Assembly: GCA_951406725.2 (NCBI GenBank)
Contig: OX597821.1
Span: 32,922,001 to 32,986,000 of the forward strand
Length of the DNA stretch: 64,000 nucleotides
Source of the DNA: Octopus vulgaris
Taxonomy: Eukaryota
Direction: 5' to 3'
Every line of letters begins with the position of its first letter. The stretch's first letter is position 1. The position numbers and the translations under genes are program-made. The notes beneath the pieces are model-generated. The model saw only the letters and a program-made list of their open reading frames with translations, was not told where the DNA came from and ran no database searches. This document shows positions 3,144-51,469 of the stretch, piece by piece.

Positions 3144-3305
3144 TACATATCTAACAGATAGATAGATAGATAGATAGATAGATAGATAGATAGATAGATA
3201 GATAGATAGATAGATCGATAGAGAGATAGATAGATAGATAGATAGATAGATAGATAGATAGATAGATAGATAGATAGATAGATAGATAGATTAGATAGAT
3301 AGATA

Positions 3306-3487
3306 TGTTTCTTTATTAGCCACACAGGGCTGCACACAGATAGAACAAATTACAAGGTAGAGCTTTTCTTTTGAAGGATTAAAAAAAAAAGAAAAAGAAA
3401 GGGGAGAGTTTCGATCAAAAGGGATCGTAAAAGGAGAGAAAGAGGACAAAAAGAGGGGGGGTTAAAAAAGGGGGAGAGGAAAAAAAA
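3306..3487 (-). mobile_element. 5'-truncated 3' end of (GATA)n-targeting Tx1-like LINE
   Basis: Minus strand ends TGTGTGCAGCCCTGTGTGGCTAATAAAGAAACA-(TATC)n. (GATA)n lies on both sides. Near-identical to 37510 and 48583, which link to ORF2 coding sequence. Confidence 0.9.
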
Positions 3488-3532
3488 GATAGATAGATAG
3501 ATAGATAGATAGATAGATGACATATATATATA

Positions 3533-3915
3533 TCTCTCTATATATAAACGGCAGTTTGTCTGTGCGTGTTTCTGTGTGTCTGTTTGCTTGTACCCTCACC
3601 CTGACCACGGCTTTCAACCGATTCTGATGAAACATGACACACACATAGCCCAATGTCATAATTCAAAACTAACGCAGTGAAAATTTTGAAAAGATCCCCC
3701 AGTTCTGAAAAATATCGATAAATTTGACATGGGGTTGAGAATCAGAAACACAAACCGCAAACTGTCTAGGGGACGCAAATCCACCTTTTTTAACTAAAAA
3801 AAAAATTTACCATCATTTTTTTCCCTTTTTTTGCTATTTTTTGGCTATAACTCTCTAAAAATGCTTTATAGTTATTTCCCTTACAAACCCGAGCAACGCC
3901 GGGCGATACTGCTAG
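3533..3915 (+). mobile_element. Non-autonomous Helitron
   Basis: Starts A|TC, ends CTAG|T, with GC-rich subterminal hairpin CCCGagcaacgcCGGG just upstream. The 5' ~210 bp recur inverted at ~58260-58474. Confidence 0.85.
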
Positions 3916-4040
3916 TATATATATATACCTACAAACATGTTTTCCTATATTGCGTGTATGTTTCTGTGTGTGAGCATGTGTATATATACACAAACATACA
4001 AACGCTACGTGGATGTATATATGTATGTATATATATAGAT

Positions 4041-4306
4041 GGAGGAAGCAGGTTAAGGAGAGATCGACACCTTTGAAAGAGGACATATTCTGCATGAAGA
4101 GCTTAAGCTCGCTGCTCGATAGCGCACTGCTGGTGTAGTGAATAGCGAAGGCTTGGTTTGAAATGTTTGCTGTCGTATATGCTTGTCTAGAGCAGGACTC
4201 ATTAGCTACCAACGGAGCCGCACATGCAAATTTAAGTTAGTCCTAGAGCGTACAATGTTCCTGAAGGTCAGCAATGGTCTTCCTCTGTCACGAGTGGACG
4301 GTCATC
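4041..4306 (+). mobile_element. Possible 3' end of a non-LTR retrotransposon followed by (ATGT)n
   Basis: GC-richer island between microsatellites. Frame RKQVKERSTPLKEDIFCMKSL weakly parallels the Tx1 ORF2 C-terminus in this window (KRKVRVERQVLSSECFKK). Confidence 0.3.
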
Positions 4307-5118
4307 ATGTATGTAAGCATGCATGTATGTATGTATGTATGTATGTATGTATGTATGTATGTATGTATGTATGTATGTGTGTGTATGTATGTAAGCATGC
4401 ATGTATGTATGTATGTATGCATGCATGTATGTATGTATGTATGTATGTATGCATGCATGTATGTATGTATGTATGTATGTATGTATGTATGTATGTATGT
4501 AAGCATGCATATATGTATGTATGTATGTATGTATGTATGTATGTATGTATGCATGCATGTATGTATGTATGTATGTATGTATTTATGTATGTATGCATGC
4601 ATGCATGTATGTATGTATGTATGTAAGCATGCATGTATGTATGTATGTATGTATGTATGTATGTATGTATGTATGTAAGCATGCATGTATGTATGTATGT
4701 ATGTATGTATGTATGTATGTATGCATGCATGTATGTATGTATGTATGTATGTATTTATGTATGTATGTAAGCATGCATGTATGTATGTATGTATGTATGT
4801 ATGTATGTATGTAAGCATGCATGTGTGTATGTATGTATGTATGTATGTATGTATTTATGTATGTATGTAAGCATGCATGTATGTATGTATGTATGTATGT
4901 ATGTATATATGTAAGCATGCATGTATGTATGTATGTATGTATGTATGCATGTATGCATGTATGTATGTATGTATGTATGTATGTATGTATGTATGTATGT
5001 ATGTATGTATGTATGTATGTATGTATGTATGTATGCATGTATGTATGTATGTATGTATGTATGTATGTATGTATGTATGTATGTATGTATGTATGTATGT
5101 ATGCATGTAAGCATGTAA
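4307..5118. repeat. (ATGT)n microsatellite with recurring AAGCATGC interruptions (higher-order repeat)
   Basis: Directly visible, ~810 bp. Confidence 0.95.
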
Positions 5119-47938: not shown

Positions 47939-48099
47939 AGATAGATAGATAGATAGATAGATAGATAGATAGATAGATAGATAGATAGATAGATAGATAG
48001 ATAGATAGATAGATAGATAGATGGATAGATAGATAGATAGATAGATAGATAGATAGATAGATAGATAGATAGATAGATAGATAGATAGATAGATAGATA

Positions 48100-48492
48100 A
48101 CTTTCTTTATTCGCTACACAGGGTTGGACACAGAGAGGACAATTACAAATGTAGAGCGTTTCTTTTCGAAGATGGAAAAGGAAAAAGAAGAAAAAAGGAA
48201 ACAAATGTAAAATTTCGATCAAAAGAGATCGGAAGGAAAAAAAAGCGATCAAAAGGGATCGTGTATCACAAAAAGAAAAAAAGTTGCTTTTTTTTTTCAA
48301 AGTAACAAACAAGATTAGGTTCATCTGTGGAAAGAAAAGCCTACAGAAAAGACCACGGTAACCTCAGACAGGGAGTAAAAAAACACATGAGAGCAAAGTG
48401 CTCTCTCTCTCTCTCTTTTACGATTTACAGGATCATGTTCAAAGTGATTTCGTCACTCGCACGCACCATATTTACTACATTCACCCACCTTT
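48100..48492 (-). mobile_element. Tx1-like LINE 3' end, divergent subfamily (array unit 3)
   Basis: Diverged but collinear (GAAAAGCCTAC.GAAAAGACCACGGTAACCT). (GATA)n on both sides. Confidence 0.85.
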
Positions 48493-48582
48493 AAGATAGA
48501 TAGATAGATAGATAGATAGATAGATAGATAGATAGATAGATAGATAGATAGATAGATAGAAAGATAGATAGATAGATAGATA

Positions 48583-49009
48583 TGTTTCTTTATTAGCCAC
48601 ACAGGGCTGCACACAGACAGAACAAATTACAAGGTAGAGCTTTTCTTTTGGGGGTAAAAAAGAGGGGGGGTCGATCAAAAGGGATCGTAAAAGGAAAGAA
48701 AGAGGACAAAAAAAAGGGGAGGATTTTAAAAAAAGGGGGGAGAGGGAAAAAAAAAGAAAAGGAAAGAGGAAAAAATATTGAACAATAGGGATCGTAATCA
48801 CAGAAATGTCAATATGAAGTGTAAAGGGGAGGACAGGTGAGTTTTACCCGTGGAAAGAAAAGCCTACGGAAAAGACCACGGTAACCTTGGTCAATGAAGT
48901 CACAGGTTATATTTCTTTTTTTTTTTTTGCAAATAAGCATCTCTCTATTAATTTTTACGGTTCATAGAATCATAGTCAAGGTGGCTTCGTCATTCATACG
49001 TGCCATCCT
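48583..49009 (-). mobile_element. Tx1-like LINE 3' end (array unit 4, non-inverted part)
   Basis: Matches the 37510 copy. Joins directly to the plus-strand ORF2 segment at 49009/49010. Confidence 0.92.
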
Positions 49010-49039
49010 GTGTTTTAAAGCACACACCCCAATAGAATC

Positions 49040-50436
49040 ATGGTCAAGATTGGTTGTGTGAATGCGCGTGGCTTGGGGTCTCCTTGGAAACAAGGATACC
49101 TCCTAAATGACATCAAGTCACACGATTTGGGAATCATAGCCATAAGTGAGACCAGACTCCACGAGCCACGGGCCCTAAAGTCCATGTTTGGCGGACAGTT
49201 TAACATTTATTTTGCTCCCTGTCTGCCGAGGATGGGCAGTAGTGGCACCACGGTACTTTTTCACAAGAGCCTGGATCTCGAAGTCAAGACGATATTCGTA
49301 GACCCGGAGGGTAGACTGGTCGTTCTGGATGTCGACGGCAGTAATGGGTGCGCTTTTCGACTCGTTTCAGTCTACGCACCGCCTTTAACAGGTCGGCCGG
49401 ATTTCTTTCGACGTCTAGAAGTATTCCTGGGAACGTCTCGTCCTTTACTTTTAGTGGGGGATTGGAATGCTACCTTGGACACGCATCTAGACTATGTGGG
49501 GAGAGACAAAAACAGAAGGGGATGCAAATGCCTCAGAGACCTGCTCAGATGATTCCAACTGTCTGACAGGTACCGACTCGACCACCCAAATGCACCAACG
49601 TGGACATGGAGCAACCGCATCGGATCGTCGAGATCGTATCTAGATAGGATACTGTGTAGGACAGTAGACAAGGATAACTTAGGATGTCCACAATTCCACA
49701 CAGTCAGCTACACGGATCACAAATTCGTGACGTGTACGCTAGACTTAGATAAGGCACATAGACAGGGTCCTGGTTACTGGAAACTGAATGCATCATTCCC
49801 GTACAGACAAGTTTTCAGAGACAGAATCAACACGTTAGTAAAAAGGGCTTTAACGGGAGCCATTGTCAACAACAAATGGTTGTTCGCCCTCAAGAGAGCA
49901 GTAAAAGCGGAAGCAATAAGATATAGCAAGGCACTAGCCGTAGATAGAAATAGAGTAGAGGGTGAGTTAGTTAAGAAGTTAGAGGAGGCAATAAGAAGCG
50001 GCTCACACCCGACGTTTTGGCAGCAAGGTTGGCCCTTGACCAACACTTCAACGCCAAACACGAAGGGTGTGCTGTCAGGGCTAGGATGCGAGCTCTAAGG
50101 ATGGAAGGTGTTGGAGCCGCGAGGGAGGCCCGGGTGGCGGAGGCGCAGCAGGGCAACAAAGCCATCATTCGGTCTCTGGTAGATGAACAAGGGCGCGAAT
50201 TGCTCGAGCCCAGCAAGATGTGCGAGACATTTCAGCGGCACTTTGCCCGACTGTACGGGACGAGTGGTGAGCGTGAACGCAGGGTGGACTGTAGTGCCTA
50301 CCTGCACAGCCTACCACGACTCTCGGCAAGAGAGGCAGAGTGCTGCGAAGGTGCCATCACGGCGGCGGATGTGCGGGACGCGATGGCAGAATGCTCGAGA
50401 GACAAATCGCCGGGTTTGGATGGTCTGCCCTACGAG
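49040..50436 (+). pseudogene. Tx1/L1-clade ORF2 N-terminal half: APE endonuclease plus linker (inverted segment)
   Basis: GCVNARGL, ISETR, SVYAP, GDWN, SYLDR, YTDH, GYWKLNAS, KSPGLDGLPYE. In-frame stop at 49550 and frameshift near 50010. Ends in (GATA)n just before the RT core. Confidence 0.95.
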
Positions 50437-51469
50437 ATAGATAGATAGATAGATAGATAGATAGATAGATAGATAGATAGATAGATAGATAGATAGATAG
50501 ATAGATAGATAGATAGATGGATAGATAGATAGATAGATAGATAGATAGATAGATAGACACATGCACACATACTGTTACTGTCAGAGTTGTTAAATAATAA
50601 AGTGAAGGGATAAACAAAAGTTAACTTCTACTAATGAAAGGACTGACTTGTTTATTCGAGTCAACTACTCCTTACATATTGGGTGGGTTTGAACTCCATA
50701 TCACAGAAATACAAAATATTAAATACTGCTGGGACTTGTGAATATTTCACGAAATTGATGGTAAACCTATTTGGTTATTTCTGAAAACTTTATTCAAAAA
50801 TCCTCAAAGTGTATCCTGTGTTGTATCTGTACTGAAAGATAGTTGCTCATCTGCCACTCACTGAAAAGTGAAAGAAATTGGAATCCGATGATTACTTAAT
50901 GGACTTTATATACTTTATGCACAATTTTATAGACTTAATATTCAGCACTCATAATATAAACATTCGCTCTTATTTTTCTATTTTCTCCCATAAACAGAAA
51001 AAATATCATGTACATATGATACAACCTTTCGTTAAATTGCACATATCTGCCTCTTAAATAAGCGTGAATATTTCACGGAACTGCATTTATGCGCATGTGT
51101 TAAGTGATAGGTGATATAAAAAAAAAATTAGCTCAATTTTAAAAAATACACTTTTCACTATCCACGCACCACCACCACCTCCACCAACACTATCCTCATC
51201 TCCCTCTCCACCTGTCTCTGTCCTCTTTCCCTCTCCCTCTCCCTCTCCCTCTTTATCCCTCTCTCTATCTATTTTTATCTGCCTTTCTTTAATCTCACCA
51301 TCAGAACATCACCCCTCTGCTAAACTTATATTTCTAACTTTCTCTGTATCACTACCGTCAACTAACATTTTTAACTACGTAATAAATATTACGTTCCCTT
51401 TAACTCACGTCATGAACGCGCTTTTTCTCTCTCCGTCTTTCTGTCTCATTCTTCACTTTATTCTCTTTA

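Follow-up and report, generated by a model that had tools for sequence, protein, structure and literature searches.

In a 64,000-nucleotide stretch of the Octopus vulgaris genome (assembly GCA_951406725.2, contig OX597821.1, positions 32,922,001 to 32,986,000; hereafter the window), a long interspersed nuclear element (LINE) is present in six copies, each embedded in (GATA)n microsatellite, which reads (TATC)n in the sense of the element. The LINE family likely targets such tracts. All six copies are truncated, with sizes of 123–1853 bp and a 3' end common to all, and such a pattern, in which 5' truncation varies while the 3' end is constant, is the signature of target-primed reverse transcription. 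Copies C, D, E and F form a single head-to-tail stack in one tract, and copy C, which spans 48583–50435 in total, consists of two parts in opposite orientation. A hidden Markov model (HMM) built from the six ends detected no further LINE end in the window. The copies, followed by the tracts that flank them (listed without strand), are as follows:

3306..3486, minus strand: copy A, a fragment of the 3' untranslated region (UTR), 181 bp
37510..37908, minus strand: copy B, last codons of the second open reading frame (ORF2) and 3' UTR, 399 bp
46703..46825, minus strand: copy F, a 3' UTR fragment of 123 bp
46929..47938, minus strand: copy E, 1010 bp, C-terminal end of ORF2 including zf-RVT (frameshift near 47477) and 3' UTR
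48100..48493, minus strand: copy D, 394 bp, the most diverged, with 56–58 of 67 terminal bases shared with the others
48583..49009, minus strand: sense part of copy C, last ~15 ORF2 codons and 3' UTR
49010..50435, plus strand: inverted 5' part of copy C, ~30 bp from upstream of ORF2 followed by residues 1–468 of ORF2 (APE endonuclease, linker)
3156..3305: tract 3' of copy A, (GATA)n, 34 units, interrupted
3487..3518: tract 5' of copy A, (GATA)n, 7–8 units, does not represent another copy's tail
37210..37509: compound (GATA)n/(GGAT)n tract on the 3' side of copy B, including long (TCCA)n stretches
37909..38005: tract 5' of copy B, (GATA)n within a compound microsatellite
46624..46702: tract at the 3' end of the four-copy stack, (GATA)19
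46826..46928: tract between copies E and F, (GATA)25
47939..48099: tract separating copies D and E, in element sense (TATC)19 CATC (TATC)20
48494..48582: tract separating copies C and D, 21 units
50436..50557: outer tract on the 5' side of the stack, in element sense (TATC)9 CATC (TATC)20, does not represent another copy's tail

The junctions are uniform on the 3' side and variable on the 5' side. The six 3' ends, all on the minus strand (3306, 37510, 46703, 46929, 48100 and 48583), terminate in AATAAAGAAA followed by CA in four copies, CT in one and GT in one. From this terminus the sequence continues as TATCTATC in one constant phase, and poly(A) is absent in all six; the positions, the direct passage into (TATC)n and the lack of poly(A) are as a preliminary description of this DNA had reported. 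The six 5' ends (3486, 37908, 46825, 47938, 48493 and 50435) all adjoin (TATC)n as well, in varied phases, so the accompanying claim that every 5' truncation abuts GATA is also borne out. Under a strict rule, which requires a perfect GATA tract of at least 16 bp directly beside the element end, 11 of the 12 ends pass, and the twelfth tract has a one-base interruption after three units. By comparison, GATA adjoins none of the 44 ends of 22 other dispersed repeats, whose approximate boundaries were taken from self-BLAST, while 7 of these ends adjoin (AT)n. Within the window, the association with GATA is real and far exceeds chance. GATA constitutes 24% of microsatellite bases, yet no other microsatellite is used by the LINE. 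Specifically, no copy adjoins (TC)n, (TTC)n, (TTCC)n or (TTTC)n, though (TC)n and (TTC)n tracts occur in the window.

Three of the six 5' tracts double as the 3' tract of a neighbouring copy. The three outer 5' tracts are unlike tails of another copy, with tail-match scores of 12–16 against 78–136 for real ends, and they sit in compound microsatellites, as element-free GATA tracts do. This supports the view that the LINE inserts into GATA tracts and does not merely carry a repeat tail. The insertions are independent and of different ages: terminal identity spans 68/68 (A versus B) down to 56/67 (D), with 3' ends 82–100% alike, and insertions of different ages therefore share the GATA target. 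Segmental duplication as the origin of the stack was ruled out, since its copies differ in both 5' ends and divergence. A further explanation invokes insertion at random, with copies selectively retained where the DNA is neutral and rich in repeats, or assembly joins through GATA repeats. Perfect microsatellite does occupy 9% of the window, but neither the use of one motif among many nor a fixed junction phase would then be expected, the control ends do not adjoin GATA, the copies differ in sequence and length, and two of them lie apart from the stack. This explanation is thus very improbable.

The distribution of GATA units clarifies the relationship between the element and its tracts. Because 8 of the 11 GATA loci in the window carry no element, GATA tracts arise without it. 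Element loci nevertheless hold 232 of the 359 GATA units, with 133 in the stack, where one locus has become five tracts of 19–39 units, compared with 12–26 in the six larger free tracts. On this basis, insertions probably multiply GATA tracts locally, whether by long duplication, added units or regrowth. The earlier suggestion that the element may generate GATA tracts is therefore plausible as local multiplication. An alternative would have the LINE insert at short TATC seeds and make the microsatellites itself, through a target-site duplication (TSD) and a repeat tail that both expand. The unit counts of the stack and of the element loci agree with such expansion, and the tracts between stacked copies (21–39 units) are at least as long as the free ones; however, most loci lack an element, compound microsatellites surround the outer 5' tracts just as they surround free ones, and the young, near-identical copies A, B and C already have 7–29 units on their 5' side. 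Seed expansion consequently appears unlikely, and insertion into existing tracts is preferred.

Two side observations concern the tracts themselves. The tracts at 47939-48099 and 50436-50557 both end in CATC plus TATC repeated exactly 20 times up to the following 5' junction, which possibly marks a long target duplication or else reflects chance; as this pattern was recognized post hoc and tract lengths drift, it is not counted. Microsatellites in the window also display a strong strand bias (plus versus minus tracts), with GATA at 21 versus 1, ACAT at 2 versus 23 and ATC at 0 versus 9. Counted by locus, the GATA bias is 10/11 (p 0.012), or 7/8 among free loci (p 0.07). This bias is possibly tied to transcription of a host gene.

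The coding remnants place the element among known retrotransposons. Pfam identifies Exo_endo_phos (PF03372, E 2.8e-8) and zf-RVT (E 1.9e-8) in the window, and a 1148-residue ORF2 relative, P0192, carries Exo_endo_phos, RVT_1 and zf-RVT. P0192 matches the endonuclease (EN) segment of the window at 76% over residues 1–324 and 83% over 322–468, the zf-RVT segment at 81%, and, in copies C, D and E, the C-terminal residues as well. The reverse transcriptase (RT) domain is absent from the window copies, and RT comparisons rest on P0192. The best solved-structure match of this relative, by sequence, is human L1 ORF2p (E 1.5e-53, versus 2.7e-19 for R2; PDB 1vyb, 7n8k, 9k6g); its RT is closer to L1 than to R2, and it has a C-terminal zinc knuckle. 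The predicted model of the window EN (pLDDT, the predicted local distance difference test, 94) is closest to L1 EN (E 2e-20, template-modelling score 0.81), compared with 5e-14 for TRAS1 EN, and the catalytic motifs of this N-terminal APE endonuclease align with those of L1 EN. The LINE thus belongs to the L1 group of retrotransposons without long terminal repeats (non-LTR retrotransposons), in agreement with the L1/Tx1 identity initially read from its APE and zf-RVT domains. In L1-type endonucleases, a hairpin loop steers target specificity. The loop aligned to FFSAPHHT of L1 is SNRIGSSR here and ATRSGQSR or STKNGKSR in close relatives, and the hairpin-exchange structures 2v0r and 2v0s echo the role of this loop in specificity.

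Membership of the Tx1 clade is likely on indirect grounds: L1-Tx1 is the only L1-group entry among recently active O. vulgaris LINEs (PMC13282606). That annotation comprises 80 L1-Tx1 consensus families, 13 of them recently active, and these automated families probably include the GATA LINE. The accessible text of PMC13282606 and a term search of its supplement yielded no target-site analysis of L1-Tx1. A quick tree was built from the RTs of 65 sequences, out of 191 RT-bearing matches, reduced for redundancy and including no named Tx1 or L1 reference; in it, five close relatives (an Argonauta protein among them) form a clade with full support (100 in the SH-like approximate likelihood-ratio test, SH-aLRT), sister to 15 unnamed sequences. 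The closest named proteins come from Argonauta hians and Octopus bimaculoides, and one O. bimaculoides model is 97% identical to copy E over a short stretch; by these matches alone the host would be an octopod, likely Octopus. Additionally, ~40 residues of the C-terminal region of the LINE start two O. bimaculoides gene models, P0190 and P0191, one of them Rho guanine nucleotide exchange factor (GEF) 10-like; these segments represent either annotation error or exonisation.

Beyond these relatives, searches were largely negative. A first protein search retrieved no relative among 852 candidates, Atlas matches were generic EN/RT clusters, and the overhangs of 75 close relatives (among 420 proteins), inspected for translated microsatellite, gave no flank information. 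Related loci numbered 0/70 and 0/65 candidates in prokaryote genomes and 0/4 and 0/73 in viral contigs; in metagenomes, one search found none and the other gave 1/123 candidates, judged an unrelated chance match. An index of sequencing runs lists 24, of which 20 (from 12 studies) contain the queried stretch wholly or in part and 6 at least half of its words, with no RNA run among those listed; these runs do not count as evidence here. Two database entries deserve separate mention. A 1775-bp contig of a metagenome-assembled genome (MAG) labelled 'Herbaspirillum sp.' (P0187, P0202) encodes an ORF2 that is 64% identical to P0192 and is most likely host contamination. Eleven related ORF2 proteins of Patella caerulea (P0047, P0171-P0180) have near-consecutive locus tags on one chromosome-size contig, which suggests a tandem stack of another site-specific family.

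Copy C contains the endonuclease segment. Its EN reading frame (49040 onward) lies on the plus strand, opposite to its own minus-strand 3' end, an inversion that the preliminary description does not mention, and ORF2 residues ~469–1133, ~2 kb including the RT, are missing between the two parts. The EN segment is interrupted by one in-frame stop (49550) and by a frameshift near 50002, so copy C is not an active copy. The possibility that this segment is a separate opposite-strand insertion was rejected, as the segment lacks a separate 3' end and P0192 matches both parts. Such 5' inversions have reportedly been described mainly for mammalian L1, a point for which the literature search gave no confirmation. 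One inversion breakpoint sits exactly at the outer GATA tract, as the twin-priming model predicts (PMC2912911), and for this reason copy C looks like a product of twin priming, while a later rearrangement or an assembly error may instead account for the inversion. Twin-primed 5' inversions of human L1 likewise have one breakpoint at the target (PMC2912911), whereas in copy C ~2 kb is missing between the parts.

By analogy with other site-specific APE elements, the LINE probably inserts by target-primed reverse transcription from a cut in the GATA strand, with the site chosen mainly by the endonuclease. The APE endonuclease would nick the GATA strand, at GATA^GATA, and reverse transcription would be primed there. 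The free 3'-OH would prime on a tail-less RNA ending ...AAUAAAGAAACA, perhaps aided by a few read-through UAUC units. The second strand would then join within the same GATA tract, thereby hiding any target duplication. Each insertion would split one tract into two that both remain targets, and head-to-tail stacks would result; copy C would correspond to a twin-primed event. The 3' terminus has no stable RNA fold (z 0.6–0.9 in 4/4 sequences), and Rfam gave no match in the window.

Several points weigh against this reading. Because four copies are stacked in one tract, the support consists of only three independent loci, all in one window that was selected for the feature. GATA amounts to 2.4% of non-LINE bases and 0.8% outside the element loci, and from these backgrounds the chance of three independent GATA hits is ~1e-5 to 5e-7, figures that have no more than descriptive value, given how the window was chosen. 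Furthermore, TSDs are unreadable inside the repeat tract, and a fixed 3' phase fits EN choice and RNA pairing alike, so sequence alone cannot separate the two. Finally, an abundant and presumably tRNA-like short interspersed nuclear element (SINE), likewise absent from the preliminary description, has a tail homologous to the LINE 3' end without any GATA preference in the window (0/18 ends; 0/6 tails run into TATC). Since this SINE stays out of GATA despite the tail in common, the endonuclease may not be the sole determinant of the site. The SINE loci are:

13069..13283, minus strand: SINE copy, tail homologous to the LINE 3' end, 13 bp TSD, outside GATA
15751..16177, minus strand: tandem SINE copy, LINE-like tails, 17 bp TSD, outside GATA
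33213..33546, minus strand: tandem SINE copy, LINE-like tail, no clear TSD
35290..35545, minus strand: SINE copy, LINE-like tail, 16 bp TSD
52347..52563, plus strand: SINE copy, LINE-like tail, 11 bp TSD

Homology covers the terminal ~50 nt of the SINE (a local score of 44, where 2000 shuffles reach at most 31), with an identity of only ~75%. Six SINE tails are the sole other hits of the LINE-end HMM below E 1e-4 (nhmmer E 9e-8 to 6e-5). According to the TSDs, present at 4 of the 5 loci examined, the terminus common to both elements is GAAA(C/T)A; this suggests that the TATC following the LINE belongs to the target side. In 5 of 6 cases, the SINE junction starts within two mismatches of GGTATT (background 4.4%), a motif derived from the same SINE copies, two of which are SINE-in-SINE tandems. 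The two elements thus have homologous 3' ends but no shared insertion signature. It was also observed that the SINE twice stands directly before a partial second copy at GGTATT.

These properties of the SINE bear on an RNA-guided alternative, in which the endonuclease would be loose and a read-through (UAUC)n RNA end would pair with the nicked GATA strand, so that only GATA sites prime. The absence of poly(A) and the fixed 3' phase fit this alternative equally well, and RNA-end/target pairing has been described for RTE, R1Bm and R2Ol (PMC6007223). By extension, the same machinery would place the SINE wherever the SINE RNA end pairs, in keeping with a LINE-like tail that is found elsewhere than in GATA and with the GGTATT-like junctions. 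However, the SINE is accounted for equally well by a sister Tx1 family whose EN has a different preference, given the 80 L1-Tx1 consensus families in this genome (PMC13282606); the tail identity is modest, and crocodilian SINEU follows the target of its Tx1 partner, although more weakly for SINEU-1 and -2 (PMC4494074). RNA guidance of the LINE is accordingly a minority possibility, and its extension to the SINE is doubtful to the same degree. The SINE was moved by a sister Tx1 family, or else the RNA end helps to choose the site. A combined scheme, in which one octopus Tx1 ORF2 would be RNA-programmed by the 3' end of its cargo (the LINE to GATA, the SINE to GGTATT-like sites), with self-feeding GATA stacks and L1-like twin priming, seems rather improbable as well. 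Site choice mainly by the endonuclease remains the preferred interpretation for the LINE.

The remainder of the window contains several rearranged or degenerate regions. Near-perfect long inverted repeats lie at 41883-42491 (94% over 613 bp) and 51484-51606 (88% over 123 bp), and a tandem duplication of ~570 bp with 96% identity occupies 60428-61584. In the region 28013-28965, short duplications, some direct and some inverted, form a mosaic with (TA)n at the boundaries. At 61720-63650, a degenerate ORF-like region that contains a CxxC-like stretch near 62976 follows what may be a UTR, and by eye resembles a broken LINE ORF1; its segment 62407–63650 has no Pfam family and no match to P0190.

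Among the microsatellite-specific non-LTR elements used here for comparison, Waldo and Mino belong to the R1 clade and Dong to R4. Unlike the octopus LINE, which lacks poly(A) and resides in GATA, human L1 ends in poly(A) and prefers TTAAAA only weakly. Fell reportedly screened 4,464 animal assemblies for site-specific elements in 2025. Microsatellite targeting by APE-type elements has been described and is poorly understood (PMC3812793). Waldo, Mino and Dong, specific for (ACAY)n, (AC)n and (TAA)n (PMC3812793), and the NeSL-related Togen, which targets (TG)n (PMC4640811), are likewise microsatellite-specific, but they belong to other clades and use other motifs. Close parallels are Kibi and Koshi, Tx1-clade elements of teleosts that target (TC)n and (TTC)n (Kojima and Fujiwara 2004, as cited in PMC3812793 and PMC4494074). 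All are APE-type non-LTR elements specific for microsatellites; compared by target only, the fish elements use pure pyrimidine/purine repeats and the octopod element (TATC)n. The crocodilian Tx1-1_Crp group also has tetranucleotide targets, (TTCC)n or (TTTC)n (PMC4494074), so such a target is not new in itself and GATA is the difference. PMC4494074 regards an element as target-specific when more than 20% of its flanks are of one sequence type, and in the window this holds for 6/6 copies, at three loci. The Tx1-Mar/SINEU pairs resemble the octopus pair in that the SINE is inferred to be mobilised by Tx1 machinery and that tandem insertions occur at the target (PMC4494074). SINEU differs in sharing the target of its partner (13–90% of copies), while the octopus SINE shares the tail but, in the window, not GATA.

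No (GATA)n-targeting LINE was found in the literature searched; Repbase or Dfam may already hold such an entry. Neither a GATA-targeting LINE nor octopus Tx1 target sites appear in the accessible portions of PMC3812793, PMC4494074, PMC4640811, PMC6007223, PMC2912911, PMC4758252, PMC8967140, PMC9115989, PMC13586686, PMC2735965 and PMC13282606, and a tree figure with target labels in PMC4494074 may bear on the novelty of the GATA target. Against the searchable literature, the statement of the preliminary description that the family was not recognised as described therefore holds. (GATA)n is likely a new target within a known kind, that of Tx1-type microsatellite-seeking elements. If the GATA specificity is true, the family adds a mixed-base target in a mollusc, and octopus GATA markers may sit beside LINE fragments. 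Relatives with different EN hairpin loops, together with a SINE that shares the tail and not the target, provide a natural comparison set, which makes the question of endonuclease versus RNA directly testable.

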